Below are positions 8,996 to 35,723 of a stretch of DNA of 64,000 nt, piece after piece. The stretch lies in assembly GCA_964187785.1 (NCBI GenBank), contig OZ076409.1:8124001-8188000 (forward strand), read 5' to 3'. Source of the DNA: Amphiscolops sp. MND2022. Lineage: Eukaryota. The position numbers and the translations under genes were made by a program. Every line of letters starts with the position of its first letter. Position 1 is the stretch's first letter. Below the pieces are notes generated by a model. That model did no database searches. It was not told the origin of the DNA and saw nothing but the letters and a program-made list of their open reading frames with translations.

Positions 8996-9477
8996 AATTG
9001 CCGAAACAAGGATAAAACTCGTTATTTACGGCCTGTTTTCGGTCACAAATGCTCACAAACAAGCTCTATTGCAGTGTCAACTAAGCAATTGAGCTCAGAC
9101 ACAGCTGATTGAAAGGGATATTGGAGCTGAAGCGTGTCGGTGATGTTTGTTTTCTTTGAGAGTAGTCACCAACTACAATACTGCAGTTGATGGGACGAAA
9201 CAAAGATTTTAGAACGCGCGTTGCCCGAAAAGGTGGCAATTCGTCCTTTTTTTGGTGCTCGAAGAGCGAGGAAGACCGAAAAGACCTCAAGCGGACAGTT
9301 AAGTCCGGACACAGTCTACACGGCGAGGAGGGAAAAGGAAAGTTGTTTCTGAGTATCAACCGGACAGTAAAGTACGGACGCAACTCAGAAAACAGACGAA
9401 ATGGCTGTAGGAACTTCAACCAAACAATGAAGTCTGGACACCGTTGCTACAGCACTGTAAAGATTGAAGAAAGGAGT

Positions 9478-10098: not shown

Positions 10099-10583
10099 GT
10101 TTTTTGATGCCGTGAAAACTTCAGTGTTACGAGATTGTTATCAACAAGTATGATTATTCCGGCTAGAAAGAATCAATTCACAAAGCGCAGTGAAGTTGAA
10201 ATTCCCTTCCTTTTCACTGAAATTAATCACCAGAGCTTTTTTGACATCCTTTCTGAGATTTTGTTACTTTGCATTCACACGATTTTGCTATCTCGAACAA
10301 AACAATGAAAGAAACTCTCTGGTTTTCAAGTTCTGAAGTTTTTTGTTTTTCCCAGTTACTCACAACAAAAGCTCCTCTATAGGTTAGGGGCTACTCTACG
10401 GGGTTTCGGGCACCTTCAGAGCTTTGTGGAACCTTCGGCTCATCGGGGTTTCGGGAATACACTTTCGGGTTCTGGCGTCAACGGGGCCATTTGGAATAAT
10501 GCTTCTGTGAGAGTATTAGTCGTAGCAGTAGTAGTAGAAAGAAGGAAAGTACTTTGACAATCAGGGCCTCTCAATGGCCACCT

Positions 10584-10888
10584 TGAAAAAAATATAGAAA
10601 TAAAGAATCTATATCTCGTTTGGCAAAAATTGAGAGAGTTCAATATTGTATTTGGTGAAGAACCAACGTCAACTGTTTAAATCAGCGGTAAAACACAACC
10701 CACTTTTTGACAAAGTCGGAAAAGATTTCATAACATTTGAATAAAATGTGATTAAAATATTGAATAAAGGGAACATCAGATTCCGAGATAGCAAAGGCAT
10801 GATTATTAGAATTTGAACATTAGAATTGAGAAGTTTCAAACACTTTCATTTTGCAATACGCTTTCATTTGCTATTTCAAAGAGCAACA
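10584..10888 (-). repeat. BEL/Pao 5' LTR
   Basis: TG...CA on minus; followed by PBS-like aGGTGGCCATTGAGAGG; matches 2341-2628. Confidence 0.85.
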
Positions 10889-11286
10889 TGCGACAAACTC
10901 GTCCAAAACAACTAACCGAATACAACTCACCGAATACAACTCGTCAAAATTAAGGCACGGAAAACGGGTGAAAAACTAACTTGTTGTTTAGACTCAAACT
11001 CGTCTGTTACAAAAAATCATTAGGCTGTCAAATAATCCATGAGAAAAGCGTTTCGTACAAATTTTATTGCGTAACATAAATACCTGTTATGTGTTTAGAG
11101 ATTCACTTTTCAGTTTGTAATTTATTCAAAATTACCTGGTGGGAATTTATAGGTTTTAGGATGACAATAGAAAACGACTCTGCTGTTTAAAAAGAAACTT
11201 CAGTCATTAATATGCATCGAGACGACAAAATAATACGACCATTAGGAATCTTAAGGACACTTCCCGTGAAGACCTCTGCAACATCC

Positions 11287-11553
11287 TGTGCTGCTTTTAA
11301 TGGTTGGTTAGTTCTTTGGATGGTATTATTCACAACTACTAAAAACGGCTGAGAGACAGACTAGCTAGCTTACTTTATTACAACTAGTTCGAGGTGTTAG
11401 AAGTAGAACAAAAAGGAAGTCAACTGAATACTGATTATTAGTTTTCTCTCTCTGAGGGAGTAGAGATTTACAATCATTCAATAACAAATAAATGTACATT
11501 CTAGAACATTCTAAACATCTAAATACTATTGGTTATTAATGTAGGTCAGTACA
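11287..11553 (-). repeat. Giant element 3' LTR (267 bp)
   Basis: Differs from 29419-29687 by 2 substitutions and one 2-bp indel; AATAAA on the minus strand; preceded by PPT-like CCGGGATGGA. Confidence 0.95.
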
Positions 11554-11734
11554 TCCATCCCGGTTTTTAAATAAAATAAAATTTTAAAGTAGCATCATTA
11601 ATTGAAATGAAGAAAAATTTTTTGTTTAAATGTTCTTAGCGTTTCAGCTAGTTAACATTTTTCAATAGATGGATGATTAGCATAAGTCTCGTTAAGAGTG
11701 GTGTAAGTTCGACTCATTGGTGTACCTCGAACTG

Positions 11735-12061
11735 TCAAAATTTTGATTGACACCTCGTAGGTGCGACTACAGTTCGAAAAGCGTCAAAGTGTTCTTTTTC
11801 ACTATGCTTTCGTCGGCTTGTTTTTTGAACTGGTAGATGCTCAATTTTATGCTTCTGTTGAAGTTTATGAAAGAACTTCGCATTGAACAAACGTGAGCAA
11901 ACATCATACGAGTTAAAGGTCAAAGAGTCATTGAAATAATATCGTTGAGAAAAATTTTCATCGAGCGTGAAATTTGTCTGAAAAGATTCCAGGTTGTGAT
12001 TAACTTTGGCGGGTTTGTTATGTAACAAATGTTGAAAACTTTGAGAATTTGGGTCTGTCAT
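11735..12061 (-). CDS. Accessory ORF C of giant element, unknown function (108 aa)
   Basis: ATG-initiated sense-strand ORF just upstream of the 3' LTR; no recognised motif. Confidence 0.35.
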   Translation of the reverse strand: MTDPNSQSFQHLLHNKPAKVNHNLESFQTNFTLDENFSQRYYFNDSLTFNSYDVCSRLFNAKFFHKLQQKHKIEHLPVQKTSRRKHSEKEHFDAFRTVVAPTRCQSKF

Positions 12062-12730
12062 TATTCGAATTTGATTTGAACAATGTGCTTGATCTAATTT
12101 TGAGCTGGTTTTGTTGAAGTTTGAAAAGATTTGTTGATAAAATTTGTGAATTTTTTGGATAGGATAGCACCGAAAAATAATAATTATTACTAATTATTCT
12201 TTAAAAATAAAGCAAATAAATATCGGTACGGGTGTGAAGAAAAGACTTTTGGGCAAATAAATGTGGGTGGGGATGAAATTTGAAATAAGAACTACATAGT
12301 GAATATTTTCGGTAAGAGTTTGAATTCATTGAAATATTAGATGACTTTGAAACTTTTCGAAATGTTATCATGCACAATGTTTTTTCTTTGAGGTTTCTTT
12401 ATTATTAAATATCAATCATCTTCGGCTGAGAATGTGGGTGACGATTGAAGATTGGAAGATGGATGAAGAAGGGTCAGCAGATGAATGAAGATGGGCAACT
12501 GTTGGGCGGCGATGAAGTTGAAGATGGGTGCTGATCTGCGACGATCAATCGTTGAAGATGTGGAATTCGAAGATGGGAGTAGACAGGTGCTGTTGATGGC
12601 GTCTGTTGATATTAGAAAAAAACGTAAGTATATGTTTTGTGCGGGTAATTATCATCTAAAAGTGCTTCTGGAGGGTCTTTTTGAAGTTCTTCGTCAGTAT
12701 CATCGTTATCATCTGAAGGCCAATAAGAAT

Positions 12731-13202
12731 TTAGACGTTGTTTTTCCATTCAGAACGCATTCTATTGGATACATTTCGTACTAAACGTTTGGGCTTGATG
12801 GTAGTATGTTCTGTTTGGGTAGTGGCGTCTCGTTGGGTTGAATAAGTGTCAGGATGTTTATGAAAATGGAGATATTGGTCGAAATTTATTCTTGTTATTT
12901 GGAATATTTGGAACATATTAAGCAATATCATCCTTGTAAGATGTGGGTCTGCCTTTTTGTCTGTTCTAAGCTGCGCATTTAATGTCGTTAAATGCTTTTT
13001 CAGGATCAAGGATCGCAATCGAGCTGAAGAGATTGAAAGAAAAGGAGCTATCGGGCAGTCTATGTCGCCAGAATGAATAGTTGTCATATTGAAGAATGAG
13101 AAAATTTCGTTGAAAGCTGTAGAAGATACTTTGGAATTCTTCTTGAATGGGTGGCCTGAGAGGAGGAAGGAATGCTGAAGAAGCAGTTGTGGCGATATTC
13201 AC
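12731..13202 (-). pseudogene. Accessory ORF B of giant element (overlapping 78-aa and 118-aa frames), unknown function
   Basis: Sense-strand frames beginning at a candidate splice acceptor (ctattttAG near 13203); probably frameshifted. Confidence 0.35.
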
Positions 13203-13607
13203 CTAAAATAGATTAGTTTGTTTACAAAAAAGTTCCTTTGAAAATAGAATTTCGTAGTTGACATTTTTTTATTGAATTTTGTGATGTTATAACTTTTTAA
13301 TTTTCAGATTTAAAATTTTGTATTTTGGAAGTTTTTTGAAGGGTATTTAAATATCTTTCATATAAGTACTTATTATGTAATCGGTCCATTAAAAAGAGGA
13401 GCAATTGAGGAATTTTGTTGAAAATTTTTATGTCGTGATTGAAATTTTTTATGTTATTTTATTTTAAAAGTGTATTTTAACATCAAGCATGTATTATAAT
13501 CGTGCATAGCAGGCATATGCGTGTAGACTCAATTACTTTTGACAGGTTGTTAAGAGATTAAGTGATAAGTGTTAACAATTTTAAAGTGATTTTTCCATAA
13601 TTACCAG

Positions 13608-14897
13608 TTAAGATCGATGCATTTTTTCAATAGTGTAGTTGAATTCGTCTAGAGATGTGCGAATGCACAAAGCTGATTGGCTAATTCTTGTCGTATCAAA
13701 TACGATATTTTGTATTATGCTTCGAGCTTGTTCAAGGGTATTAACGATTTCAGCGATTGTTATAAGAATATCTCGGTTCGGATGATGATACGGTTTTATG
13801 ATATTCAGGATATCTGTATAGTTCTGTAATTCATGTTGGGCGAAAACTTTGTGGTTGAGGAATATCATTTTTGGTTTTCTTAGGCGATTCTTGTTTTGCC
13901 TTTTTATATTCTTTGTGATTTCCATTTGTAAGAAGTGAAAGCAGATGAGAAATAATGAAAATTAATTCATTATTTGAATATCCCTTTTTGGTCATTGCGT
14001 GAAAACAAGATTTTTCACAGTCTCCCAAAGGTTGAGAGGCTATATGTTGAAGTGGAGGAAGAGGATCAGATATATGTTGAGGTATATCTTCTTGTAGTAA
14101 CGAATCGTCGTTCAGAATGAGGTATTCTTGTGGTACAATGATTGGTCTTTTTGGGTTATCATTTGGAAGGAAGAGAAAACTTTGTTTCAGCGGGTCATAA
14201 TTTCTAAGTTTTCCTTTTGTTTTGGTATGATCTATTAAATATTCTGAGTTGAAAGTGAATGGCGTTGTATATTTGGAGTTGAAGAATATAGAATTATCGG
14301 GCTCTTTATATTGAAGAAACTTTTGATAAGTCATGTGGTGGGCCTTTTTGATTTGGTATGGCAAAAATTTTGCATCATTTTCTTCGGTTCGAAGATCATA
14401 TGGAGATGGTCTGGGGAAGTTGTTTGGAGTGAGAAAATTTTCACTTTATTGTTTAACTACCAATCATATGGGGTAATCAATTTTGAAGCAATTGATGTAT
14501 GATAATCATTTTCAAATTCTCTGATGATGAATTTGTATTTTGTTGGAATCATGTATAACGAAGTTAACTGAGATTGAAAGGTGAAGTGTTTTGACAAGAG
14601 AATAGGAACTAATTCACAATCTCTATCTTCATCTTGTTTAATTGGTTTTATGAAAGGAGGGCAAGCGCCAGATTCCATAAAAGGTTTATCTGCAGTTATA
14701 TCTGGGTACTTTCTTTTTTGAGATCTTGTGTTAACATGATCTACTTGTTCAATAGGAATATTTTCTACAGGGTCTTGAGAGTTGGAGGAAGAGTTATTAT
14801 CTTCGTTAACATTTTGTTGAATAGTTATATTCAAAGGGGATGCAAGCAATTCAGAGGGATTAGAGTTAACTACATCAATTTCGGGCAAGGATTCCAT
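13608..14897 (-). pseudogene. Accessory ORF A of giant element (~430 codons; one stop and two frameshifts), unknown function
   Basis: Three collinear sense ORFs (14457-14897, 13831-14364, 13608-13925) with similar composition that join by frameshift. Confidence 0.5.
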
Positions 14898-15339
14898 TAT
14901 TTAAACTTGCGTGTTTTTGTAGAGCTAAAATAATGATTATAACGTTTGATTACATTGTTTCTAATAATAAGGAAAAATTTTGTTATGTCTTTTCTATCCA
15001 TTAAATTGTTTGTTAAAATTAAAGTTTAAATTGTACTTACAATATGGGAATACTGAGTCAATGATGGGTTGAAAACATCAACAATCACAGTGGCATCTAT
15101 TCCAGGAATAGAAACTTCTGTGATTTCGGTCTTTTAGATGGACTGAAAATCCAGTTGAAGTCTTCTGGTTGAGAGTTGAGTTGTGGTGGGCAAGTGAATT
15201 TTTTTTTTGAGTTGAAAAAGAGAGACCGGTCCGAATGAGAATTTGGGTGTGAATGAAAGTTAAAACTGAGAAGAATTTAGTTGATAATTTTTTGAACTTT
15301 TTCTGAGATTAATTTGTTTTTTAAGTTATTGCTTTTCAG

Positions 15340-17916
15340 CTAGGAGGGATTGAATTTTATAAAGACTTTAGCAGGACTTTCCGGTACAGCTATTACATTT
15401 GACATTATTGGATCATAGTCCTGAGAATTAATATCGTTTACATTAGTTGGGTGTGTCTTTTGCGGTGATTGAATTGTTGAATTCTTACTGGAATATTTAG
15501 GAGGTAAATAAGGGGAGTCAGTATCAGAGTGTCTTCGTTTATTGTTCAATTCTTTTTCCGGCAATAGGATATTATCATTTTCACTTGTTGTAATTTTGTG
15601 TTTAGTATATATCCGTTTTCGTTTTCCTGTATTGTTTAAATCGGTTACCATTTCCGATGTAACTATATTAAAAAATCCATGGGCTATTGAACTCAAAATG
15701 GAAATGTTGCTTTGGAGAGTATATTTTATGCTAATTGTTCTGTAGAATTTGAGTAAAAATGTTAAAACTTCTCTAATGAAAAGAAATGTTGAAAAATAAA
15801 TTCCACATTGTGTTAAAACATAACATGGATATCCAAAGAAATTAATGAATGCTTGACTGAATCAGTCAGGGTTAAAAAGTGGTAAAAGGTTTAACAAGTG
15901 GTCATGTACTCCAATCCTTAAATGATTATAGGGATTATGTCCTGAGTATGAGTGTTTATCATAATGCATTGAGATGAAATCATAGCTTAATGATTTTCCA
16001 AGTAATTGAAGTGTTGTGTCTGAATGTTTAGCAAATAATACTCTATTCCAGAGTTGATGTAATTCTGCATTTGAGTATATACCGGCATCTTGGGCGGTAA
16101 ATGTATTAGGAGTGATTGTTGTTTTAGTTTGGGTAGGTTTAAACATTTGTGGTGCTTCTCGTTTGAGTGGTTCTGGTGTTAACACATAAAAATCTCCGTC
16201 GTTGGAATCTGGATCTAATTCTATTATATTTTGTGGATTATTTCCACATTCAATTGGTGTTGCATAGTTAAAAGTTTGTCTTGTTATTGGGTCATTATAC
16301 ATTATCGTTTCTCGGTAGTGTATAGGAATTCTATCAAAGCATTTGCCTGCCTTGTATAGTGTTGATATAAAATGAGGGCAATCATACAGCCATGCTGTAG
16401 ATCCTTCGACGTAGAGAAAGTTACTACGATTTCCAGTTAAAAGAAAACCGGCTAATCGAGGATTTTTAACTGACATAGCTAAGATTGTTAATAGTTGAGT
16501 TCTTTCCAGTTCACATATTGTATGAAAAGTGTTTAGTTCTTGTACTGTCATGGATTTAAATACATGATTTATTGTGAAATCAATCTTTGTATCAATGTGG
16601 GCATCATAATCTAAAGTGGCGAAATTGTTTGATATATTCAATGCAGGGAATATATACCTTTTGTTTGAATCATCATATTTTATATTTCCACTAATTGTTT
16701 GGTCAATTATTGAGTGTGGTTTTGGTAATCCTGTGTTCATATCAAAACCATCTAAGTATGTAACAAAGATGTCATCATATTGTGTTGAAAAAAAAGGTTC
16801 AGGTTTTCCACAGAAGGTTTGTGCAATTGGGTATATTTCAAATCGAGAAAGGCTTGGATTGCTTACTTTTGATTGTGGTGTTTTTACATTAGGATATCTT
16901 GTTCCTTGTATTCCTTCTGTTTGAAGTTTTTGTGTGATGTTTGAAGTTTCAATGAAGGTATCGGTTTCTATCCAGTATCTATCTTTGATTCGTGTCATTC
17001 TACCAATGAATTCTTGAAGTTGAAATATGAGGCAAAATTTTTCATCAAACCATGTTAATGTATATGGAGTTTTGGTCGTTGGTTTACAAAATCCGTCTGA
17101 ATGATAACATGGTAATATGTGTCCGTCATGTATTAATTGATTGTTTTTATCGTCATAATCTATTGCGGTGTTAACAATTCTAAATTTCCAACTTTGTCTG
17201 GTAATTAAAAGTTCTCGGTCTGATCGACATCTGGAGTATGTATTTTGTGTAACATTAACTATCCAGTCAGGATAATTTTCATCAAATACGAAGGTTCCAA
17301 TATGCCATGTATTTAATTTTTTTACTCTGAATGGTGTCTGAATTCGTTCAATTGTGTTTTGATAATTACTATCGTCGAACAAAGAGAAAGAGCTTTGTTT
17401 ATTGTAGTTGTTTAGTTCTTCGCTATCAGTCGCGTTTAAATATCTGATCATATTTTTGCATTCAAAAGGGTCCAGTATTTTTGGAAGTTCTAATGTGTTT
17501 TGTCCCCATTGTAAACGATCATATCGTCTACTAGATGTGAATGTTCGTGAACACCAGACTTTCTCAGTCTTTATATATGCTTCGCATTTAAAGGCTTTTA
17601 TTCTTTTAGCTTTTGCTCTAACATAAACTGTTGTTTGGGTTTTTGTGTGTTGTATATCTGAGGGTGCTTGTTTACATGGTTCTACATTAAATAAACTGAA
17701 TTGTCTTAAGTTGTTTTGTGTTGCACAATCATAATGGGATACCATCAAGTTTAAAATGTTAGGGTCTTGGTCTGAAATATGATTTTCGGAATTGGTGGTG
17801 TCAACTTTTGGAACAGTTGAAGGGTGAACTAAAGAGTGAACTATATGTATTATATATGTGTATTTAACAACTTGTATTATATATATTAAGTAAAAGGTAA
17901 AGGTGATTTGGTTCAT
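15340..17916 (-). CDS. env: env-like class III (gB/chuvirus-glycoprotein-like) fusion glycoprotein, ~858 codons, one premature TGA at 15862-15864 just before the TM segment
   Basis: Hydrophobic N-terminal signal-like segment; HYDC...EPC...FKC...WC; ICELERTQLLTILA...NP.LAG.LL...EG..AWLYDC...CFDRIPI...DPITRQ...IEC; N-glycosylation sequons; the same frame continues past the TGA into FINFFGYPCYVLTQCGIYFSTFLF and a cytoplasmic tail. Confidence 0.8.
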
Positions 17917-17918
17917 GG

Positions 17919-19380
17919 TTAAAATATTGATCTATAATTGAGTCCGGAGTAGGGATTTAAAAAGTTTATATGTCCTGTTCTAATCTCAGGTAAATCTGCG
18001 TCACAAAGGTAAGAAATGGATGTGACTATGAATGGTGATGGGGTTGTTTTGTGTGCTACTCTTGTTGAAAGAGAGAATGGATGAGGTCCTAACGAGTTGA
18101 ATGTGACTTCTACTTCAAATTTTAATGAGAGTTGTTGTTCTTGTAATCTTCGAAGTTCTCTTTGTTTTCTTTGAGTTGAGAGTGAACTGTTGTTTATAAA
18201 TCTTGCAGGTAATACCGTGTATCGAGGATCTTCGTTAAGCGTGCGAACAATTTTTGAGTTAACACGAATAGGATATTCGTGAGGATTTGGCGATGGAGGT
18301 CTTGAGAAATCTTCTAAAAAATATTCAGGTAATTGTATGGAAGAGTTTGATGCTATTGAACTAGGTGAGTAAACTCGTGAAAAATTAGCTGCGCTATCTG
18401 ATATAGTTACTGGCTCTTCAGAAAGAAGAGAGGCTGTTTCAAATCCTGATGTGATTTGAAATGGTAGTGATAGAGAAGATGGTATAGTGGGTTGAGATGA
18501 GGAAAGAGAAGAAGTGTCCAATCTGGGTTGGGCGTGCTGTCGAAGTAGTCTTGAGTTTGTACTTGAACTAGTTAAAGATTGTAATTCTTGAGAATTTCTT
18601 TGTTGTTGAGATCGAAGGTTATAATTATGTCTTGGTACTCTAGTACTAGCAGTTGAGTCAGAATCTTTATCTTTATGATATAAATCTGTTAATGAAGAGG
18701 TGGTTGTTGAATGTACACGTTGTATATTATGCTTGGGATATATTTGAGAAAATGTGAATGAACTTAGTTCAGATGGTGAAGGAGTTGGGTGTTGTTGTGT
18801 TTTCTTCGTTGGTGATTTCAATGAAGGTTCTGGTAAAAATGTTATTGGAATATTACTTGATGATGGTAAATCAAGATTTTGTGGTAATGAAGGTAAAGGA
18901 GTTTTTCTTTTTGTTTTCGTTGCGGTTGGTACTTTGTGTGGACAAGAATTTATGTATTGTAGGACTGAGCTAAGATCAGGGATATGAATAGAACGAGTGG
19001 TCGTAATCGGTGGAAGAGGAGGTCTATTTAAAATATTTTAAGTATCTTGTGTATTTGGTATTGTAGGTGTTTCATCATTAGAGTCAGAAAGTGGTGAATT
19101 TGTTTCTACAAATGTTAGATTTCGTGAAATAGGATGTGATTGAGTTGTTAATATTAATGTTTGAGTTTGGGTTATAGGTGTATTGGTGGGTGTTGTTGGT
19201 ACTCTATCAGGAGTATATGGAGCGGATGGACTGGGATTTGAGGATGAGGAATCCAGTATGTCTGTATCTGAGTTTAAATATGCTGTATATTCAGGTAATC
19301 TTTGGAGTGAATGTGTTGAACTAGAAGAAGAGTTATTTGTGGTTGATGATGGCGAGTGAATATGTCTATCAATTTTGAAA
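17919..19380 (-). pseudogene. Ser/Thr/Pro-rich ORF between pol and env (open 17919-18821; upstream part interrupted)
   Basis: Long low-complexity sense reading frame; its TAA lies 2 nt before the env ATG (TAAccATG); upstream part encodes PSAPY. Confidence 0.55.
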
Positions 19381-19550
19381 CCTTTGTGTTAAGGTAGTTT
19401 GTTTCAATTTATAAAGTTTTTATAGTTTCATATCGATTTCTTTCGTTTATTATCACTTGTGAAATATTTTTCATTCAGTTTCACAGTAAGCTTCAAACTT
19501 TTGCTTTTCTTTCAAATTTTCTTTATGTGCCTTTTTCTGTATTCCGTATT

Positions 19551-22500
19551 TCAGCAGAATTTTTGAGAAAGTGAAATTATATCGTTTTGACCAAGGAAAA
19601 GTCGGTAGTCTTTTCTTGGTTGTGGGCGGAAATGGTATCTATTATAGGAGTGTCTTCGGAGATTAATAAAATTATCATAGTCATGAATATCTGATTGGTT
19701 ATCCAGGTAGGTATTTTGAGGAATTTGTTCTTTTTGTTTATATGGAAATGAAGAATATTGGCTAAATGATTCTGGTTGTAAGTCAATCGTGAATGGTATA
19801 TCCGTTTCTTTATTAGATGTTGTGGAAGGAAATTGTTCTTCGTCTGTAAATTTGTCTTCATCAGAGTTAATTATTTGATCGTTTATATTTGAATGACAGT
19901 CATTAAATAAATGAGGGTTATATTGTTGTAGGAAAGGAAAAATAACTGGTTCTTTTGGATGATAAGGAATTAAATCATTTCTATGTATGTGCGATGTATA
20001 ACCATCTTGATTAACAATTTCATATGTTATGTCGGAGATTTTGTTATTAATTTTGAATGGGCCAATTCTGAGAGGTTTTAATTTATCGGAAAAATGAACA
20101 TGGAGAAAATTTCTTTTTAGTACAAATGTACCAATATCTAAGGGTCTTGGATTGTGATATGTTTTGTTAAAATAAGCATAGGAATTAATCTTTCTTTTTG
20201 TGTTGTCATATACCGTATGGTATATCTGTATCATAGCAGTTTCAGTAGCTAAGATCCATTGTGGAATTGGTTTAGATAAAATTTTATGAAAAAAAGGGTT
20301 TAGATTTGATTTGTCATAGTGTGTATGAAGTGGTAATTCTTGACAATATTGAGAAGTACAATTTCTATATGTATCTCTTTGGAGATTGAGTTCAAAGTTG
20401 ATTGGAATTCTGGGTATAGTATGGAATACTGTTTCATATGGAGATAAGTTTAATTCAGAAAGTGGTTGTGAATTATGAGCATAAGCATACATATGAACTT
20501 GAGTTGACCAATTTTCTGGAGTGTTATGTAAGAAAAGTCTGAGATGAGTTCCAAGATTTCTGTTTTGATTTTCAACTAAACCATTTGTCCATGGTGCATA
20601 AGGAGTTCTTGGTGAATGTCTAATTCCCATTGTGGTACAAAGATTTGCAAATTCTGAATTAATGTATTCTGTTCCACGGTCGGTAACTAGATATACAGGA
20701 GGTCCATATTTTGTTATCCAGTGATGTAGTAATGAGTTAACAGCGTTTTGAGCATTATTTTGTTTTATAGGTACTGTTACCACAAAATGACTGAATGCGT
20801 CTATTATAACATGAATGTATGAATTTTGATTTGATGGTGGGTTTATAGGTCCTTTTGTATCCATTGATATTCGGTAATTAAAATATGAAGCATTTTCTGA
20901 GAAGGTTTGTATAGATGCAGTTTGTAATTTTTGGTTAATATGTTTCTTTTGTTGGCATTCAATGCAATCATGGATGAATATTGACATCCATTTATTCAAG
21001 TACGGTATGAAGTAAAATTGGTTGAAAGCCTTGATGGATATCTTTATTCCTGAATGTCCATGAGCATGAAGTTTGTTAAAAGCTGCGTGGAAAAGTTTAA
21101 ATGGTAGACATATTTTGTCTCTTTGATTCGGGTTGGAATCGTGAAGATTAGGATAACCTATGTGGATAATTTTTGTATCATGATTAATATATAATTGGTT
21201 GAAGATTTTGTAAAATACTAATAAGAAAGAGTTAGCTGCAATTGTTGGGTCTATTTGTAAGGGTCTTTCATTATTAAGTATCCATTGGTAAACCTTTCGT
21301 AAAACAGTATCTTGGTTTCGTTGAGCTTTTATTGTTTCAATGGTTATTTGTGTATCTTCTGGTAGGAAGAAGTAATTAAAATATTTTTTGTATTTGAAAA
21401 AGGATGGATCAAAAAATGGAACTTGTTGTTTACAATAGTCGGATTTGGTAGGATATTGTATAGCAAGGGTGTGTTCCTTTACTATGTCTGAGTTTTCTTG
21501 TTGGATATTATTTGATTGTGTTATTTCATCTTCATCACTAAGAATGTCAGTATCATTAAGAATTGTCGATTGTTGTAAAAAAGATTTTGCTTGGTTTTTT
21601 GTAGGCTTTTTATTTTTTGATTCGAATGGAACAATAGATTGAAAAGAGAAGGAATCTAAAGGTTTTATGTGTATTTCTTCTTCTTTGTTATTTATACGGA
21701 TAGAGAATTGGTCGTCTCCGTAGTCAGCAAGGATAGGGTGACAATCATTCTTTTGATTATATTTTATTTCTTCATGTTTTACTAAATAATGTACTGGTTT
21801 GAGTTGATTATTTTTCATGATAGAGAAATCTATTTGAGGTGGTAATTGTTTGTGTCGTAATTGGTGTACTTGTAACTGTTCTTTTGTAAAGGTTCGTGAA
21901 AGCATATCTGCTACAGTTAAATTTTTTCCAGGGGTATGAATGATTTTTAGTTTGAGAATTTGGTTAGTTGCATTTGTGCTCTATAGAATCTAGGACTAAG
22001 ATTTCCTTTCTTTGCGAAACATTGTAGTAAAGGCTTGTGATCTGTGAAGAGGTATATAGGATGAGGAGATCCAATGATCAAAAATTCATATATTTGCAGT
22101 GCGTAAACTATTGCAAGAACTTCTCTATCTAAAGTTGAAAGTTTTTGTTCTTGTGTGTTAAGAATTCTGGAGTTATAAGAGATTACTTTCATCTTATTTT
22201 CTTCGTTCATTTGGAATAAGACTGCGCCTAAACCTACTAACGAAGCATCTACTGTTATGAAAAATGGATGCGTGGTGTTGGGTATTGTTAATTCAGTGTT
22301 TGCTGTCATTGTATTTTTGACATTTTGAAATATTTTTCTAATTCAGGTGTCCATTGAAATTTAACATCATCATGTAGTAATGTATACAATGGTTTAAGGT
22401 TTAGATGAAGTTTTTCAATGAATTTTGAATAAAAGTTAACACTGCCAAGAAATTGCATAACATCTTTCTTTTTTTGGTGATGGAATTCTTTTAATAGCTT

Positions 22501-23281
22501 CAATTTTGGATGGAATTGGTTTAATTGTGTTGTTACCAATTTCATGTCCAAGGAATTTTACTTTGAGTAACATGTAGAACGATTTTTCAGGTGCAAGTTT
22601 GAGATTTTCTCGAGATGCTATTGTATGTGATTCTTTTATAAGTTCAAACATTTCGTGTTTTTCGTTTGCGAGTAATAAAATATCATCGAAATAAACTAAC
22701 GCAGAACGTTTCTCTATAAGCGATCTAAAGAAAGTTGACATTTGTTTTCTAAAAAAAGTTTGGAAGTTCTTTTAATCCATAAAATCCACGGATAAAGGCG
22801 TATAATTTGTCACCGGATGAAAAGCCTGTAAGTTTAATTGTTTCTTCGTCTAATGGTGTATGAGCATATGCATACATTAGATCAATAGTTGATTTGTATT
22901 TTTTATTGGCTCTAGCTAATTGAGGAGCTAAAGGTTCAATAGGCCAAGATTCAGGTTCTTGGTTAGTGTTTGAGTTTAGATGTCTTTCGTCTAAAACAAC
23001 TTTTATTGCGTCTCCTTTTGGGATAATAATTAAAGGGTTTAAAAATGTTGTTCCAATAGTATGTTTTTCATCTGTTGTTGAACCAATTTGTTTTATGATG
23101 TTGTATTTTTCAAGTTCTAATAAAAGTTTATTTAGTCTATCTCTATAATGAATAGGTACTTTAGAAGGTCTTTGTGTGTGAAGTTTACAATTATCTTTTA
23201 TTCTAATTCGAAAGGGAGTAGAAATCTTTCCTACGTCGTTCTTATGTTTGGCGTAACAATTTTGGTTATTAATCAAAATAT
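19551..23281 (-). pseudogene. pol: pol of giant element (RT-RNase H-insert-integrase), ~5 single-base frameshifts
   Basis: KYKSTIDL and YFDD RT; DASLVGLGAVL, TDHKPL and ADMLSR RNase H; H..GH..C..C zinc finger, MDTKGP, TDRGTEY, NGLVE integrase; GPF C-terminal motif. Confidence 0.92.
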
Positions 23282-26200
23282 TCAGAGGTTTACATATTCT
23301 GTATCGGTTAAATCTGAGTATTCAAAATTGAACTTCTTTATGAATTGTTGATTTTCTGTAGAATAGGGTAATGGAGGGAATTCTTTTCGAATTTTATCTG
23401 AAGGTCGAAGGTTTCCAGTAACAGAAGGTATAGGAAGTTGAAGTGTTTTGTCGTTAATTTCTATCTTGTTAATTTCTAATAGGGATTGTGGTGTTACCCT
23501 AGTACATAAATTCATATCTACATAAGGATTTTGTTTAATCGGAGTTGTGGTATCAGGGTGATACGCATGTATTACAGAGTGAATAAGTGAATTTACATCG
23601 TTAACTCTGTAGTGAGGAGGAGTTGTTTGAGTAATAGGTATTTCTATATATCCAATAATTCCTCGTGGTAATGTAGCTGGATAAGATGTAAAGTTTTGAA
23701 TTATGGTTGCACATGAGTCTTTGCTTTTTTCATTGACTATCATATCTAGGAAATGAAAGATATTTTTGAATTTTTGTAAGAAATATGTATATGGGTTTGT
23801 TGGATAGAATTTTGTATTATCTTCAAGTTCAAAATTTAGATTTGAATAGTTTTTAATTGGGAAATGTATGGTTTTTCCTGACCTTGGTTTAAAGTGAATT
23901 GGTTCCTTACATTTAATAGTATAAATGTAAGAAATATATGGGTAATCTTTTTCTGTAAATGTGGAAAATGTAGTTTTTGTTGGAAGCTTTGGATGTTGTT
24001 CTGTGTACGTCATAATGTTTTGTTGAAAATCAATATTTTGGATGTGTTTTTTGAAAAAGGGTGTTCCAAGAATGTTGTATTTGATATTTGCTACGGCAAA
24101 ATCGATATTGAAGGATCGTGTTTTGTGATTTACTTCAGTGAAACAGGTCATCGAAATATAATGTATTATTGGTACTTCAGTTTGGTTTGCAACTGTAAGA
24201 GTTTTGGCTCTTTTGTTTTGAAGGTTAGTTGGAACATTGATGTTTAATTGTTTGGAAATTACATGAAATGTTGGTAAATTCAAAACAGATATGGATGCTC
24301 CAGTATCTAAGAGGAATAAGATTTCGAATTTTGAAGGTAGTATGTTATCATTTGGTTCAGAAGCGTGAATATATAGTGGATAAAACCAACTATAAGGAGT
24401 GATTGTATTAGCTATTTCAGTTATTTGACAGGTGTGGATTTCAAATTTTGTACTATCATTTTCTTTTGCAGATTTAACGTCTACTTGATTTATTCTGTTT
24501 TGTTGTCTGTTTCTTGAGGGTGTTCTAGATCTTGATCTAAAATCTCTAGGTTTTGATGGAGATTTATATGGATAATTATATCGTTTGAAGAAGTTTCCTT
24601 GTGATTGAGAACGAGATCTGTATCTTGAGCGAGAATTATATCTGTAATTTGAGTTATTTCTGTATGGAGATCTATATGGAGATCTAGATGGAGTTTTTCT
24701 TTGATAATAATTATCAAATCGAGATCTATACGGACTTCGGGATCGATTATAATATCTTTGTCGAGAGTTTGATCTATAGTTGTTTTGCGAATATTCTCTA
24801 CTATTGCTACGATATCTATCAATGTTTCTGTATCTATCATTATAGTAATTTTGATTATATTTACTACGATCATTATCTGAGGAGTAAGGATTTGTATTGT
24901 CATTTCGATTTTCTTGAGGATTATTAGGTTTACTGCGAAAATATTGTACAAAGGATTGTTGAGGAGTTCGTGATCTTTGGTTATTGTATTTCTGGTATTC
25001 GTCATCACGTTGTTTTTGATAACAATTTGAAATACTATGATTATTTTTGTGACAATAGGAACAATATTTTCTATACGCTGGTTTGCTTTTGTTATTTGGG
25101 TCTCCAGTTTGAGTAACCATTATCTGATCTTCATGTTCAAATTCTTTTTTGTTAGTATCATCTTCAAGCGATACTTTGTTTATTTCTAGGGCTAAGTCGT
25201 TAGTTCTAATTTTTTCATTAGCAATATCTTCAGAATCGACATGTCTAACAAGTGTATAAAATGGTATTGAAGGTTCAAGTAATGTTGATACATGTTTAAC
25301 TTGTCGTTTATGGGCAAAATCTTTAAACTTCTTTGGTAACCCTTTTGTAAAGATTTCATCATTTTTGAGATTTATGGTAGCTGCATTTTCATTACACCAT
25401 CCCTTTTTAACTAATTGTTGTACTCTAAGGGCGAAGTGGCGAACTGTTTCATTGTCCTTTTTCATGAGTGACATAGCTTCTACTTGAGCGTAGTAAGCAG
25501 TTTTTCGAGATGAGAATTGTTTTTTGAATAATTGTACAAAAGAATTCCATTGTTGTTCATATGATATATGGAGGTTAGTGTACCAATCGAGAGCTGTTCC
25601 TGTTAATGAACATTGTATGTAAGCCATGCGTCTGTTATGCCAAGATTTGTAATTTATAGGATTATTTTGAGGTTCTTCACCTATGGCGAAGGTTAATCTT
25701 GCTTCGACTTGTTGTAGATATTCTTCGGGGGTGTAAGAATGGTCCAAACCATCAAAAGGTTTCATAGGTTCTGGTATTGAAGCGGACATGTTTATAAAGG
25801 TATCTTGTGGCATTGGTAAATATTGGGGTGGAGGAGCTAATTGTTGTGTGAGTGTTGGAGGTATATGTTGGATTGTATTTGATGGTAATGGGTTAGGATT
25901 AGGGTTAGGATTTGGATTTGGATGCGTTTGATACAGAGGATCAGTTGGTATATGTGTAAGTGGAGGATTATGAAGTCTTCTTTGAGAATCCTGTGTAATA
26001 TTAGAATAAGAAGTGGAAGTATACGAGGTTCCTTGATTTTGAGAATATATATTCTGGGAAGTATTGGTATTTGATAATTGTATGAAGGGGTTTTGTGTTG
26101 TTGAAATTGTTTTAATTTGAGAGTGATGTTGGTTGGTATTTGTATTGTTAGTTCTATTTGATGGAGGATAAAAGTTATGATTAAATGGATCATAATATCG

Positions 26201-27583
26201 GTTGGAAGTTTGGGGATTATCATTAAAATTGTTGTTGGAAGAGGTTGATCTGTTTGAGCGAAATGCGGAGGGAATTGATGGAGGATCAAATCTAGATCGA
26301 GTGATGTATCTTGTATAATCAGGATTAGTTCTTGTTGGAGATGCAACATTAACAGAAGTATTCTGAGCACTAGATGTAGTCAAAATATCATCCTGTAATG
26401 TATCATGGGTTTCGTCGTGTATGTCATCTGTATGTGGAAGGTTTAAAGTTATATTACGGTTTGGAGATGTAGCTAAGTGAGATTGAGGACTATGTGTAGT
26501 TTGTCTTTGGTTTACAACTCTAGTGGGAACTCTAAAGGGTTGAGTATGTACTGATGTTGATGTCCCTGTTTGTGATGGATTATGTGTTGAAACTGTAGAT
26601 TCTTGGGTAGTAAACTCATTATCGTTATAGTTTTCAGGTTGATTTTGTTGTTGGGTTGTATTTTCCTGATCGGTGTTATCATCTTCAGTGGAATTGTTAG
26701 TGTTAAAATGTAAATTTTCTTGATCTTGAGAATTTTGTTCATAGTGGTAAGGTCTATTGTCTGCGAATAGATCATTTTCTGTAATTAATAGAGGATCGAA
26801 ACGTATGTAACCTAAAGTTTGTTTTGTAATTGATTGTGGTTTATGAAAGTAAGGATCTTCATTTTGTTCACTGATGATGAATGGTAAACATTCTTCTAAT
26901 GTAAAATGATCTGGAAATGCTGTAAAAGCAGATTGATCTTGTTGTGACCATAATAGTTGATAATTAAATCTGAAGTATTTTCTGAGAAATAAAGATATTA
27001 CTTTGATATGAGGAATTGTTTCGTCATTTAATGTTAAGTCTTTGAAGTAATGGTAGATGAAATTTTGAATTCGTAATATATCAGCTTGTAACCAATGATG
27101 GGGGTTGTCTTCAGGATTAACTAATCTTTCAATAATTTCTACGTCGAAATTGTCTATGTATCGTTGAAGATCGTCGAGTGCATTTGGACTAAATTTTGGA
27201 ATTTCCTGTGCTAAGTTGTGGTCTTTTACATTGTTTAGAAAAGCATGAAAAACTTGTTTAAAAGGAACTTGAAGGTTTATTGGATTTATTGTTCTTCTGT
27301 ATATATGAGATGAATTAGGTCTTTGATGAAGAAAGGATATTTGAAAAGTTGGGTATTCTTCGGTGGTTGTTAAAACTTTGTATCTAATATAGAAAAGGTA
27401 TGTGTCCAAGTGTTCTCTAATAAGAGGGATTGTTTCAATTGTGTGTGGTTCATTTTCAAATGGGAGTGGTTGTGTATAATGTGAAATAATGTTTTGTAGG
27501 AATGGGTTTAGTTCTAATTTTACAATTTTTGCATTTTTAATGATGGGGGTTTGAAAAGGTAAATAGGTTGTTGTTAATGACAT
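23282..27583 (-). CDS. gag: gag-protease of giant element (1433 aa open; probably once continuous with pol)
   Basis: PFDG...EEYLQQVE...LTGTALDWY...WNSF capsid-like region; CSYCHKNNHSISNC knuckle; Arg/Ser/Tyr-rich region; LLDTGAS and NILG aspartic protease. Confidence 0.9.
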   Translation of the reverse strand: MSLTTTYLPFQTPIIKNAKIVKLELNPFLQNIISHYTQPLPFENEPHTIETIPLIREHLDTYLFYIRYKVLTTTEEYPTFQISFLHQRPNSSHIYRRTINPINLQVPFKQVFHAFLNNVKDHNLAQEIPKFSPNALDDLQRYIDNFDVEIIERLVNPEDNPHHWLQADILRIQNFIYHYFKDLTLNDETIPHIKVISLFLRKYFRFNYQLLWSQQDQSAFTAFPDHFTLEECLPFIISEQNEDPYFHKPQSITKQTLGYIRFDPLLITENDLFADNRPYHYEQNSQDQENLHFNTNNSTEDDNTDQENTTQQQNQPENYNDNEFTTQESTVSTHNPSQTGTSTSVHTQPFRVPTRVVNQRQTTHSPQSHLATSPNRNITLNLPHTDDIHDETHDTLQDDILTTSSAQNTSVNVASPTRTNPDYTRYITRSRFDPPSIPSAFRSNRSTSSNNNFNDNPQTSNRYYDPFNHNFYPPSNRTNNTNTNQHHSQIKTISTTQNPFIQLSNTNTSQNIYSQNQGTSYTSTSYSNITQDSQRRLHNPPLTHIPTDPLYQTHPNPNPNPNPNPLPSNTIQHIPPTLTQQLAPPPQYLPMPQDTFINMSASIPEPMKPFDGLDHSYTPEEYLQQVEARLTFAIGEEPQNNPINYKSWHNRRMAYIQCSLTGTALDWYTNLHISYEQQWNSFVQLFKKQFSSRKTAYYAQVEAMSLMKKDNETVRHFALRVQQLVKKGWCNENAATINLKNDEIFTKGLPKKFKDFAHKRQVKHVSTLLEPSIPFYTLVRHVDSEDIANEKIRTNDLALEINKVSLEDDTNKKEFEHEDQIMVTQTGDPNNKSKPAYRKYCSYCHKNNHSISNCYQKQRDDEYQKYNNQRSRTPQQSFVQYFRSKPNNPQENRNDNTNPYSSDNDRSKYNQNYYNDRYRNIDRYRSNSREYSQNNYRSNSRQRYYNRSRSPYRSRFDNYYQRKTPSRSPYRSPYRNNSNYRYNSRSRYRSRSQSQGNFFKRYNYPYKSPSKPRDFRSRSRTPSRNRQQNRINQVDVKSAKENDSTKFEIHTCQITEIANTITPYSWFYPLYIHASEPNDNILPSKFEILFLLDTGASISVLNLPTFHVISKQLNINVPTNLQNKRAKTLTVANQTEVPIIHYISMTCFTEVNHKTRSFNIDFAVANIKYNILGTPFFKKHIQNIDFQQNIMTYTEQHPKLPTKTTFSTFTEKDYPYISYIYTIKCKEPIHFKPRSGKTIHFPIKNYSNLNFELEDNTKFYPTNPYTYFLQKFKNIFHFLDMIVNEKSKDSCATIIQNFTSYPATLPRGIIGYIEIPITQTTPPHYRVNDVNSLIHSVIHAYHPDTTTPIKQNPYVDMNLCTRVTPQSLLEINKIEINDKTLQLPIPSVTGNLRPSDKIRKEFPPLPYSTENQQFIKKFNFEYSDLTDTEYVNL

Positions 27584-28949
27584 TTTTCTAAAGTTTGTCT
27601 CTTATCACCGTAAGTATTTTTTCAAGAAGAACACAAACTATAAATAAGACACAAAACGTGTATGTTGTAATGAGTACTACTGTGGTAACCTTTTCCCACA
27701 TGTTATAATGTGAAGGTGAGAACGTTGCAATTGATTTTATATATTTTTTTAAGTTGGAGCTCTTGGGTAATGTCGTTGTTGATTTATGATAAAGAAAAAA
27801 TATTGTTGATATCGTTCAATTAATCTTTCAAAATCGTTTGCTGTAGGGTTTTGAAGGGAGCTAATTGGCGGAATGTAAAAGTTGAAAGGATAAATTGCTT
27901 GGTTGTATATGTTAGGGTTCATATAATTTGTATTATAATTTGATGTTGTTTGAAAAGTTAATAGTTGTGGATAGAGAAAAGAAGCGGATGCAGTAGGATC
28001 TGTATTCAACCTCAAAGGATTGCTAACAGAAACTAAATGTTATTTTAAGTCTGGATCACTTTAAGGTGTCTAACATAAGGTTACTGACACGTCCAGAAAA
28101 ACTAAGATTGTTTTATTTTTAAGTGGGTTGTGTGTTTTAAGACTAAGGGAGTGGAACTCTGAACAATCAACGTCCACTATCCAGAGTCTGATCAATACTG
28201 ATCAAGATCAAAGTTTGATCTTTGTTTCTTTTACTTTTACTTTTACTTTCTGAGAATTTTGAAGATTCGAACGTAGTTCGGTGTCCTCTCGATTCTCCTA
28301 AAAGACGTTTACACTTAACTAAGGTTTTTAGTCTGTCTTAGAATCAGAGTAAGCTGGTGAGGCTGTGTGATTGGCTAAGTCTTACGGGAGGGGATAGGAA
28401 TTGTGGGTGCCTGAAAGTAGAAAACTAACTTTACTGTGTTTGTGTTATTTACATGCCTTATTTTAAGTTTTAAAGCAAAAGAGTTGTGAGAATTGTATGT
28501 GGTATTTTGTTAAAATAATTGTTTTGTAGGATTATGTTAAAATTATTACCATTGAAAGTACTAGAGATAAGGTTGAGTGTACTTTGTGTTGTTGTTTTTG
28601 TTGGTTATTGAAAAATTTTTTGAAGTTACTTGTATTATTTAAGTTTTGTGAATTTATTTGTATTGTTTGTCGACAATAGGAAAAAAAATGGAATAGTGCG
28701 TGGTTGTTTTTTGTAGTTAGTCTTGGTTGCCTTTTTTTGTTTTCAGAGTCTATTTCTGAAATTTTTTTGTAGGAAATTTTGTAGAAAGGGGATCCGAAAC
28801 GTAAAAGTAGAAAATCCAGGTTTTCTGCCAACACGAAGTTGATCTTGAGACGTATGTGCTTATAGGTGAGCGGAGTTGGACATGCACTCAATCAACTATT
28901 ACACCAGGAGTCCACCTGACGTCCAAGATAGCAGGATTGAAGAAAGTTG

Positions 28950-29179
28950 CTGTGTCAAAGGTGTTAGAAACCTTGATAAACCAGACAAACGTCAAAGAAC
29001 TGTTTCAACAAGCTTCCGGATTAGCTGTGATAAATCAGTATAGAGAACAGAACTGTGTCACTTTGGATAAATCAGTCCGAAATGAAACCGTTTCAACGTA
29101 TTGGAAAACGTGATAAACCGGTATGGCAAAAAAAACAGGAAGAAGAACCGTGTCAACGTTAGAAAACGTGATAAACCGG
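28950..29179 (-). repeat. Array of five imperfect stem-loops in the 5' leader of the giant element
   Basis: Sense-strand consensus CYGRUUUAUCA-[variable hairpin]-UGAMACRG at 28950-28984, 29000-29038, 29053-29075, 29088-29121, 29148-29179. Confidence 0.8.
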
Positions 29180-29400
29180 TAGTGAAGAAAATTTGTTATA
29201 TTTAAATTGATTTTTGTAGTGGAGAAATTGTGTTTCGAACGATGATGTATTTATTGATGAAATTCAGAAAGTCACAGACTAAACTTTCAAGGAATTCTAG
29301 AAAGATTTCACTGCAATTCCAGAGAATTTCAAATATAGAGAGTGGTATTTGTATGATTGTTGAGAGAAGAGAAATCATCCAGGAGAAAAGGCAAAAATTT

Positions 29401-29415
29401 CTACAAGTCGCACCA
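29401..29415 (-). promoter_or_regulatory. Primer-binding site of giant element
   Basis: TGGTGCGACTTGTAG 3 nt downstream of the 5' LTR on minus; cognate tRNA not assigned. Confidence 0.75.
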
Positions 29416-29418
29416 AAT

Positions 29419-29687
29419 TGTGCTGCTTTTAATGGTTGGTTAGTTCTTTGGATGGTATTATTCACAAGTACTAAAAACGGCTGAGAGACAGGCTAGCTAG
29501 CTTACTTTATTACAACTAGTTCGAGGTGTTAGAAGTAGAACAAAAAGGAAGTCAACTGAATACTGATTATTAGTTTTCTCTCTCTGAGGGAGTAGAGATT
29601 TACAATCATTCAATAACAAATAAATGTACATTCTAGAACATTCTATAAACATCTAAATACTATTGGTTATTAATGTAGGTCAGTACA
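29419..29687 (-). repeat. Giant element 5' LTR (269 bp)
   Basis: ~99% identical to 11287-11553; flanked by TSD ATCC. Confidence 0.95.
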
Positions 29688-29798
29688 ATCCATTGTTGTT
29701 TTCCCATGTTTTAGAAAAGCGCATGGTTAAAAAAATTCGTTTAATCAAACTTTCTTGCAGGCCATTGACCATTTGCAAAGCGTTTCCAAAGAAAAGCT

Positions 29799-30395
29799 AA
29801 CCAGAGCCGCATATGCGGTAAAGGAGTCGGCTGATGTCTTTTTCCTTCTGACTCGCTCCAATCCCAGAATCATACGAATTTATTGAAATTGCACACATAG
29901 GACCACACATTCTATGGTGTAAAAATGACTGAAGAAATTTTTGTTCGAATAGTATGGAGTTTTTGAGAAAATCAAAAAATGGCGTTTTTTGGCCATTTTT
30001 GGTTAATTTTGGCTATGTTTCTCACATCCCAGCCATACAATTTTGATGCCATTGCACATATAGGACTCTAGTATGATGTAGAATGACTGTAGAAAATTTC
30101 GTTCGAATCGTATGGACAATTTTTGAGAAAATCGAAAAAAGTCGAAAAATGGCTGTTTTTTGGCCATTTTTGGGCTAATTTTGGCTATGTTTCTCACATC
30201 CCAGCCATACGATTTTGATGCCTTTGCACACGTAGGGGCCCCTTTGGGTGTAGAATGACTGTGCAAAATTTCGTGAAAATCGTATGGACAGTTTTTGAGA
30301 ACTTAGAAAATTTCATGAAAAGGTCGGGAGAAAAAAATACAAAAAAAAACAGCACGATTGCATAAGTAGTCGAAAATTTGTCCGACTCCTAAAAA
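29799..30395 (-). mobile_element. HINE-like family A copy with internal tandem subrepeats
   Basis: AGGAGTCGG/CCGACTCCT subterminal inverted repeats, CCGCATATGCGG palindrome, T-rich insertion site. Confidence 0.7.
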
Positions 30396-35504: not shown

Positions 35505-35710
35505 TGTGACATGAATATAGTTGAAGGTCAATAGTAACGCAATGTTACATAATTCTTACTTACTTTATGACCTTTTATGTTAATTACATAACATACCTGC
35601 TAGTAACTCTAATGTCATCTGTAGTACGATATAGTGAACACTATAACTTGATCTTACGTACAATACAGTATTACATTCCCAAAACTTCTTTATTCCATTG
35701 GTATACAACA
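35505..35710 (+). repeat. Mag-like element 5' LTR
   Basis: Direct repeat of 41279-41484. Confidence 0.95.
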
Positions 35711-35723
35711 TGGCGCAGTCAGA

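Follow-up and report, generated by a model that had tools for sequence, protein, structure and literature searches.

We analyzed a stretch of 64,000 nucleotides (nt) from the genome of Amphiscolops sp. MND2022 (assembly GCA_964187785.1, contig OZ076409.1, positions 8,124,001 to 8,188,000), here called the window. An endogenous retrovirus element occupies window positions 11287-29687. Its sense strand is the minus strand, on which all features below are located, and a direct repeat brackets both ends. A direct-repeat search and an alignment of the ends placed the 5' long terminal repeat (LTR; 269 nt, TG..CA) at 29419..29687 and the 3' LTR (267 nt, TG..CA) at 11287..11553. The two LTRs are 99% identical, the differences being 2 substitutions and an indel of 2 nt. 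As read from the aligned ends, they are flanked by the target-site duplication GGAT (ATCC on the plus strand), located at 29688..29691 on the 5' side and at 11283..11286 on the 3' side. A primer-binding site (PBS)-like core, TGGTGCGAC, starts 3 nt past the 5' LTR (29407..29415), and a polypurine tract (PPT)-like stretch with a CCGG core adjoins the 3' LTR (11554..11568). A first-pass annotation made from the sequence had described these termini (ATCC duplication, PBS, PPT, and LTRs differing at only 3 sites), and the end alignment bears this out. All long open reading frames (ORFs) of the element lie on the minus strand, in the order leader, gag-pro-pol, ORF3, env, ORF5, and ORF6, in agreement with the gene order given in that annotation.

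The gag-pro-pol gene was delimited by ORFs and Pfam domains and comprises about 2,680 codons (19551..27601). Pfam detected Retrotrans_gag in the first long ORF of the window element, followed by RVT_1, RT_RNaseH, Integrase_H2C2, and rve in the remaining pieces. In intact relatives, RVT_1 is followed by RT_RNaseH/RT_RNaseH_2, then by Integrase_H2C2, and then by rve. Gag consists of a 650-residue N-terminal extension, the Retrotrans_gag domain, a CCHC knuckle, and a tail rich in R, S, and Y. Inspection by eye revealed a D-T-G protease (PR) motif upstream of the reverse transcriptase (RT), which contains the motif YFDD; RNase H (RH) and integrase (IN) come after it. A weak Tf2-type SH3 match was found past the integrase core, and a C-terminal SH3/GPY-F-like module lies inside pol. 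By its pol domain order and termini, the element is a Ty3/gypsy (Metaviridae)-order retroelement. The PR-RT-RH-IN order and the presence of an env gene also match the initial description of a Gypsy-type element with env. As separate observations on gag, the first ~650 residues match no family, yet are under selection with a ratio of nonsynonymous to synonymous substitution rates (dN/dS) of 0.30, and the tail (window 24400-25000) is a long Arg/Ser/Tyr-rich low-complexity run after the CCHC knuckle that resembles an RS domain.

The env gene (15340..17916), defined by Pfam and by comparison with relatives, encodes a signal-like N-terminus, a PF24664 ectodomain, a hydrophobic anchor, and a tail. 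Its 689-codon ORF in the window matches PF24664 (Monjiviricetes_fusion) with an E value of 1.6e-24. Across the families of the lineage (see below), env ORFs matched PF24664 only, with E values of 1.6e-24 to 1.8e-27, above the curated cut-off. The ESM-Atlas clusters nearest to env carry PF24664. Negative-strand RNA viruses and arthropod genomes are their main sources, and herpesvirus glycoprotein B (gB) or rhabdovirus G families are also present in some of them. In Pfam searches at E up to 0.01-0.05, the env ORFs did not match the baculovirus F-type family. The only furin-like site near the N-terminus was, as judged by eye, not followed by a hydrophobic fusion peptide. By its sequence, the protein is not a classical F-type (class I) env as in insect Errantivirus. 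Chary and Hayashi (eLife 2026; PMC13524379), in the available part of their paper, describe a retroelement Chuviridae-like glycoprotein as structurally similar to gB and class it as HSV/gB-type ENV (HSV, herpes simplex virus). Because of this classification and the PF24664 match, we read the env described here as HSV/gB-type (chuvirus/gB-like). Sequence and profile searches with env against PDB returned nothing credible, the best being a chance match to CD48 (E 0.2), and an AlphaFold model of the ectodomain was unusable (mean predicted local distance difference test score [pLDDT] of 36.0). A scan of a viral contig collection with the env profile yielded no relatives.

Three further genes lie around env, an arrangement of unusual complexity for an invertebrate-type retroelement. 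ORF3 (17919..19037) has 372 codons without a single Met codon and is conserved in families B and C. Its first half is rich in S, T, and P, and its C-terminal ~120 residues are conserved up to its own stop in A, B, and C. The open frame extends upstream past an in-frame stop (19038-19388), and this part carries no coding signal. ORF5 (13608..14900) comprises about 431 codons in other copies and could not be assigned to a known family. Its frame is open in 81 of the 98 genomic matches that were scored. Full-length matches to ORF5 in the protein database (278 at 69-97% identity) are all unnamed and contain 0 Pfam domains; a profile search retrieved 599 representatives. The core of the protein is conserved, and its C-terminus is predicted to form a long helix. 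A hydropathy scan indicated no membrane segment in this protein; its threshold was too strict for the result to count, since even the anchor of env was missed. No usable match to ORF5 was found in the ESM Atlas, and its structure prediction was unusable (mean pLDDT 36.7). ORF6 (12731..13198), when counted from its Met, comprises about 160 codons in other copies. In lineage A, it contains a basic stretch and an acidic tail.

Coding capacity was assessed by dN/dS according to Nei-Gojobori, using comparisons of family-A copies with A2 and of an A' copy with the window copy and with A2. The values were 0.11-0.16 for gag-pol, 0.09-0.22 for env, 0.11-0.26 for the main part of ORF3, 0.11-0.14 for ORF5 (wrong frames, 1.2-2.0), and 0.12-0.22 for ORF6 (wrong frames, 1.0-1.3). 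The upstream ~119 codons of the ORF3 frame gave 0.35-0.56 with flat position counts, and control regions (leader, env-ORF5 spacer, and 3' region) gave 0.53-1.02. A third-position excess was clear in the coding regions and absent in the control regions and in two short ORFs. The 1.8-kb leader (27584..29418) reached 0.56-1.02 in all three frames and showed no third-position excess; its 119-codon ORF at 28532-28891 had a dN/dS of 0.62 and position counts of 30/35/33. Likewise, the 3' untranslated region (11569..12730) gave 0.61-0.92 in all frames, and its 152-codon ORF at 11735-12193 had a dN/dS of 1.08 and position counts of 50/42/41. Because the third-position excess is missing, the leader, the env-ORF5 spacer, the 3' region, and the two short ORFs were called noncoding. 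These data confirm that ORF3, ORF5, and ORF6 are three genes of the lineage under purifying selection, and that the leader and the last ~1 kb are untranslated. The ~3.5 kb of further ORFs predicted behind env are thus to be reduced to two genes, ORF5 and ORF6, both broken in the window; the last ~1 kb contains no coding signal.

The copy in the window is decayed. Its gag-pro-pol is split into six pieces in three frames (1439, 190, 111, 83, 131, and 809 codons), with all five frame changes located in RT/RNase H between about 23320 and 21950. In env, an in-frame stop at 15862-15864 lies just before the hydrophobic anchor, where relatives read through. ORF5 is broken by two frame changes into 147, 204, and 117 codons, and ORF6 is truncated, its C-terminus being lost after a frame change. 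Altogether, about 10 disabling lesions were counted. Compared with three other copies, 14 indels (all of 1-2 nt) and 171 substitutions in 18,274 aligned sites are private to the window copy. The three other family-A copies are also broken, each at different places. The window copy is therefore neither intact nor infectious but a decayed, non-autonomous element, and the suggestion that it is possibly infectious fails. The proposed gag-pro-pol of ~2,700 codons exists as one ORF of 2610 codons in another family-A copy, not in the window.

The genome (1.07 Gb, 1,929 contigs) was searched for related elements. An LTR query of 274 nt, which included 5 nt of the PBS region, yielded 1,847 first-look candidates; the 42 matches that were scored had 95-100% identity. 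In family A, to which the window element belongs, three further full-length copies can be aligned with it across 18.4 kb, with identities of 94.1%, 97.9%, and 97.0%. Integrase-region matches of this family were free of stops in 28 of 56 scored cases, and one of the 56 lay in a frame of >2,000 codons. Two subfamilies are close to family A. A2 is older (LTRs 92.9% alike; 77-79% identity to the window element). A' is a younger sister subfamily with 86.6% identity to the window element, and the A' copy examined has identical 237-nt LTRs, all frames open, and a single gag-pro-pol ORF of 2654 codons. Of 45 scored matches to a related pol, 17 or more fall within an uninterrupted open frame of 2,654 codons. 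More distant are family B (18,134 bp; 421-nt LTRs, 99.5% alike) and family C (18,825 bp; identical 340-nt LTRs). Their gag-pol layout varies: one B copy examined has an in-frame stop, and one C copy examined has a -1 overlap. The env gene is open in 49 of 50 scored matches in family B and in 31 of 50 in family C. Altogether, the lineage has thousands of germline copies in the genome. In addition, three family-B env matches on the same strand are spaced by exactly 18,204 nt (C9:7861239-7900349), which suggests a tandem array of elements sharing LTRs.

The families have the same architecture. The layout leader, gag, pol, ORF3, env, ORF5, ORF6 was found in all lineages, at a size of 18.1-18.8 kb. 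Between families, identity amounts to 57-61% for pol, 54-62% for env, 42-52% for gag, 36-41% for ORF3 (E 1e-37 to 1e-60), and 35-43% for ORF5 (E 1e-56 to 1e-91). The termini are shared as well. A 4-bp duplication was present in 4/4 elements checked (window, A', B, and C), the PBS core TGGTGCGAC is also found 3' of the 5' LTR in A', B, and C, and the stretch beside the 3' LTR, which is not a plain purine run, has a conserved CCGG core in all four lineages. A genome pattern search for a primer tRNA with a PBS-complementary acceptor stem gave 27 matches versus 48 for the control, none of them tRNA-like. Since the A' copy and the family-C copy have identical LTRs, the lineage has been recently active, as the first-pass annotation had supposed. 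The concern that other copies might lack the env and accessory block was also addressed: none of the 7 other full-length elements examined does. Outside the lineage, the closest pol relatives found form one group of giant gag-pol proteins with 43-45% identity to family-B pol, and named relatives are generic animal gypsy polyproteins with ≤34% identity. The giant proteins reach 2,566 amino acids, and one of their clusters has 2,731 members. In the present genome, they are matched at no more than 41%; a related high-copy lineage is therefore present in some other genome.

The absence of Met codons from ORF3 extends to four lineages (0 in A, 372 codons; A', 490; B, 418; and C, 477). With all three frames considered, no stretch of an element is free of ATG for longer than the one over ORF3, which measures 1159 nt in A, 1183 nt in A', 1024 nt in A2, 801 nt in B, and 905 nt (653 before) in C. 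In A, A', A2, and C, this stretch reaches to the env ATG; in B, it stops about 285 nt short of env, at an ATG that opens only 2 codons. Under a first-order Markov model fitted to the ORF3 region, 7.5-10.6 ATGs would be expected there, but 1-3 are present (P 0.002-0.015 for every one of 5 sequences). Those that are left open only 1-21 codons. This pattern suggests that ORF3 and env probably share one subgenomic mRNA. Just upstream of the conserved part of ORF3, a pyrimidine-rich AG was found in A, B, and C, which is a candidate splice acceptor. In A, an in-frame stop of the ORF3 frame lies just upstream of this AG and is common to two copies at different loci. If the AG is an acceptor, this stop would be intronic, which would explain its presence in both copies. 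A conserved CUG in good context (AT[AC]CTGGAT) was considered as the ORF3 start. Its position is in the upstream portion of the frame, where no coding signal was seen in lineage A (dN/dS 0.55-0.56), and it was therefore not relied on.

Based on these features, we propose the following expression model. The full-length RNA would be translated into Gag-Pro-Pol. It would also serve as the template for copying, primed by a tRNA that ends in ...GTCGCACCA, and the copy would be integrated with a 4-bp duplication. The downstream genes would be read from subgenomic, probably spliced, mRNAs. For ORF3, an upstream exon may provide the start, as in the case of CERV of Cer1 (see below), or a non-AUG codon may be used, and ribosomes scanning through the AUG-free ORF3 region would reach the env AUG. 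ORF5 and ORF6 are presumed to be soluble proteins lacking a signal peptide and a membrane segment and, by analogy to the accessory genes of complex retroviruses, may act as regulators or host antagonists.

Taken together, we interpret window 11287-29687 as a decayed copy of a high-copy Ty3/gypsy endogenous retrovirus lineage, which carries a PF24664 env and the genes ORF3, ORF5, and ORF6, and whose downstream genes are presumably expressed from subgenomic RNAs (probability of about 0.75). Several points weigh against this interpretation. The class III (gB-like) fold of env is presumed from the PF24664 sequence match. The candidate acceptor has the same codon phase in A and B and a different one in C, and a scan of the first 3 kb in 5 sequences revealed no strong consensus for a GT donor. 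The ORF5 ATG of family A is not preceded by a long ATG-free run (58 nt). The model for ORF3 and env expression is a sequence-based proposal. At the ORF6 position, the ORFs of A, B, and C have no detectable similarity to each other, so that the identity of ORF6 as one gene is shown for lineage A only. None of ORF3, ORF5, and ORF6 matches Pfam, which makes any function a conjecture, and sequence and profile searches with ORF3 and ORF5 found no credible match in PDB: the best hits were a designed coiled coil (E 0.006) and cofilin (E 0.03) for ORF5 and chance matches (E 0.3) for ORF3.

We weighed this interpretation against four others. If the extra ORFs were chance ORFs, remnants of nested insertions, or a captured host gene, the lack of a known domain in any of them and the unrelated sequences at the ORF6 position in A, B, and C would be easily understood. 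However, 7/7 other full-length elements are colinear, no internal LTR or repeat boundary was found, and the strand-composition skew is uniform across 12-28 kb. Moreover, the dN/dS of 0.11-0.26 contrasts with wrong-frame and noncoding controls near 1, and ORF3 and ORF5 are conserved between families (E 1e-37 to 1e-91). Colinearity and purifying selection thus support the initial view of these ORFs as genes rather than a one-off capture, and the opposite explanation, already largely refuted, is extremely unlikely. Hardly more credible is that the window copy is in fact young and intact, its frame changes and stops being assembly errors such as homopolymer miscalls. As would be expected in this case, the 14 private indels are all of 1-2 nt, several are in or beside short A or T runs, and the LTRs are 99% identical. 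Several other indels, however, are not in homopolymers, and 14 indels to 171 substitutions is an ordinary ratio for neutral decay; for these two reasons, we take the lesions as real. Furthermore, each of the other three family-A copies is broken elsewhere, the env defect is a substitution-type stop and not an indel, and the same assembly contains many A', B, and C copies with long open frames.

The other two explanations concern the nature of the genes and of the lineage. ORF3 could be not a separate gene but an exon spliced onto the C-terminus of Pol or, as a leader-peptide-like module, onto the N-terminus of Env. It has no Met in four lineages, begins 100-510 nt past the pol stop, and abuts or overlaps the start of env. 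We nevertheless consider this improbable, since the frame of ORF3 relative to pol and to env is not constant between families, and the conserved C-terminal motif extends to the own stop of ORF3 in A, B, and C. In addition, env has its own Met and signal-like N-terminus, and pol already contains the SH3/GPY-F-like module that ends an integrase. A more serious competitor, which we still regard as the less probable case, is a purely intragenomic retrotransposon whose env and additional ORFs are kept because they help it spread from cell to cell inside the host or serve some other purpose, rather than for an infectious phase outside cells. The thousands of germline copies are in line with this, as are the distance to the nearest outside pol relatives (43-45%, with a best match of that group in this genome of 41%) and the lack of an env relative in the viral contig collection. 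On the other hand, purifying selection on env (dN/dS 0.09-0.22) is as strong as on pol, and the high proportion of open env in families B (49/50) and C (31/50) would be expected if env were needed for each new germline insertion. The selection pattern of env does not distinguish between soma-to-germline infection and horizontal spread.

A farther-reaching reading is tentative, and we think it probably goes too far. The lineage could be a so far undescribed group of complex retroviruses of invertebrates, placed inside Metaviridae or next to it, that independently evolved a retrovirus-like accessory module, with an AUG-free bicistronic ORF3-env mRNA and with ORF5 and ORF6 as regulatory proteins or antagonists of host defence. 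It would still be active, as subfamilies with identical LTRs and all frames open suggest, and its extreme G depletion could be the footprint left over a long time by cytidine-deaminase pressure, which accessory proteins of this kind would counter. Complex gene content, with accessory genes around env and spliced subgenomic mRNAs, is usually regarded as characteristic of a few genera of vertebrate retroviruses. Here, selection maintains three extra genes in families whose pol and env residues are only 54-62% identical, in a Ty3/gypsy-type lineage that has a negative-strand-RNA-virus/gB-like env and whose 18-kb copies number in the thousands within 1.07 Gb. Should the expression model hold, a complex retroviral organization would have arisen independently outside Retroviridae, and there would be three orphan proteins with testable roles, for example in RNA export, transactivation, or evasion of defence.

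The sense strand of the element is rich in A and C and very poor in G (11% in the window element). G accounts for 8.5-11.6% and C for 21-27% of the sense strand in the window element and families A2, B, and C, in coding and noncoding regions alike. Among the private substitutions of 4 copies, an excess of G>A over C>T was absent in 2 and 1.7-1.8-fold in the other 2. Recent G-to-A hypermutation was therefore rejected as the source of the G depletion, since no clear G>A excess was present. Two LTR elements neighbour the window element and do not have this G depletion. One of them (window 2340-10889, minus strand; LTRs of 290 nt, 95% alike, 8,260 nt apart) contains DUF1759 (BEL/Pao gag-type) and an integrase zinc domain and is decayed to many short ORFs. 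The other (window 35505-41485, plus strand; ~6 kb, LTRs of 207 nt, 99% alike) has a Ty3/gypsy RT-RNase H-integrase and no env, and its sense strand contains 42% A and 19% G. A repeat of ~172-177 nt was also found at window 770-946, 29972-30320, 52608-52956, and 59130-59306. Its units are 75-96% alike and occur as tandem pairs and single copies, with one pair located ~300 nt from the 5' end of the element.

The comparisons below refer to the available parts of the cited sources. Ty3/gypsy elements carrying an F-type or gB-type env have been reported from most animal phyla, 1,512 of them, described as having three ORFs (PMC13524379). The lineage described here resembles these errantiviruses in its gag-pol-env order, its PR-RT-RH-IN pol, its Chuviridae-/gB-like env, and its multi-copy, near-identical families, and it likewise has gag, pol, and env ORFs in one multi-copy element. 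It differs from the three-ORF elements of that source by three more selected genes and by its size of 18.1-18.8 kb, compared with about 7-12.6 kb from LTR to LTR in 46 of the 1,512 table rows. The complement of the PBS, GTCGCACCA, occurs 0 times in that table. The survey of non-insect genomes limited the POL-ENV gap to ≤1,000 nt and the region to ≤10,000 nt (PMC13524379). Both limits are exceeded here (pol-env gap, 1.3-1.7 kb; gag-pol plus env, ~12 kb), and for this reason the lineage may have been filtered out. Size and gap filters as published for env-bearing gypsy elements can thus miss lineages of this kind. No described animal element with the same layout was found in the openly searchable literature, RepBase and subscription journals lying outside this scope. 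The earlier remark that the lineage may be undescribed therefore has to be divided: env-bearing gypsy elements are already known (PMC13524379), whereas the size and the set of three additional genes appear to be new.

Captured Chuviridae-like glycoproteins were also reported in mosquito BEL/Pao elements (Dezordi et al. 2020; PMC7642597). These have the same kind of env family but belong to a different superfamily, BEL/Pao instead of Ty3/gypsy, and the available text mentions no extra genes for them, whereas the present lineage has three. In bdelloid rotifers, LTR elements carry diverse ORF3s (Rodriguez et al. 2017; PMC5408684). According to the accessible part of this source, each of these elements has one ORF3, which is often enzymatic (GDSL lipase or DEDDy exonuclease; a dUTPase is located in pol). 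In contrast, the lineage described here has three ORFs that do not look enzymatic, in addition to env.

Complex retroviruses resemble the present lineage in having accessory genes between pol and env and after env, in the likely use of subgenomic mRNAs, and in an env start that may be reached by leaky scanning. Examples are tas/bet located after env in spumaviruses and the bicistronic vpu-env mRNA of lentiviruses. The likeness to the present lineage is in layout only and is an analogy, no homology of accessory genes having been found. The lineage does not belong to Retroviridae, as its pol is, by Pfam domains, of the Ty3/gypsy type (RT_RNaseH, Integrase_H2C2) and its env is not a retroviral transmembrane/surface (TM/SU) protein. 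Another counterpart is Cer1 of C. elegans, which is far smaller than the 18-kb elements described here. Cer1 encodes CERV, whose spliced mRNA borrows its start from gag and which is needed for the export of unspliced genomic RNA (Sun et al., PLoS Genet 2023; PMC10309623, available text). CERV and the bdelloid ORF3s indicate that the first-pass statement that Metaviridae carry at most env beyond gag-pol was too strong (PMC10309623, PMC5408684). The exons of CERV overlap gag, whereas the extra genes of the present lineage are located after pol and after env (PMC10309623). Both, however, are Ty3/gypsy-type elements with a lineage-specific extra protein of no known family (PMC10309623), and by analogy CERV is the best functional model for ORF3 and possibly also for ORF5 and ORF6.

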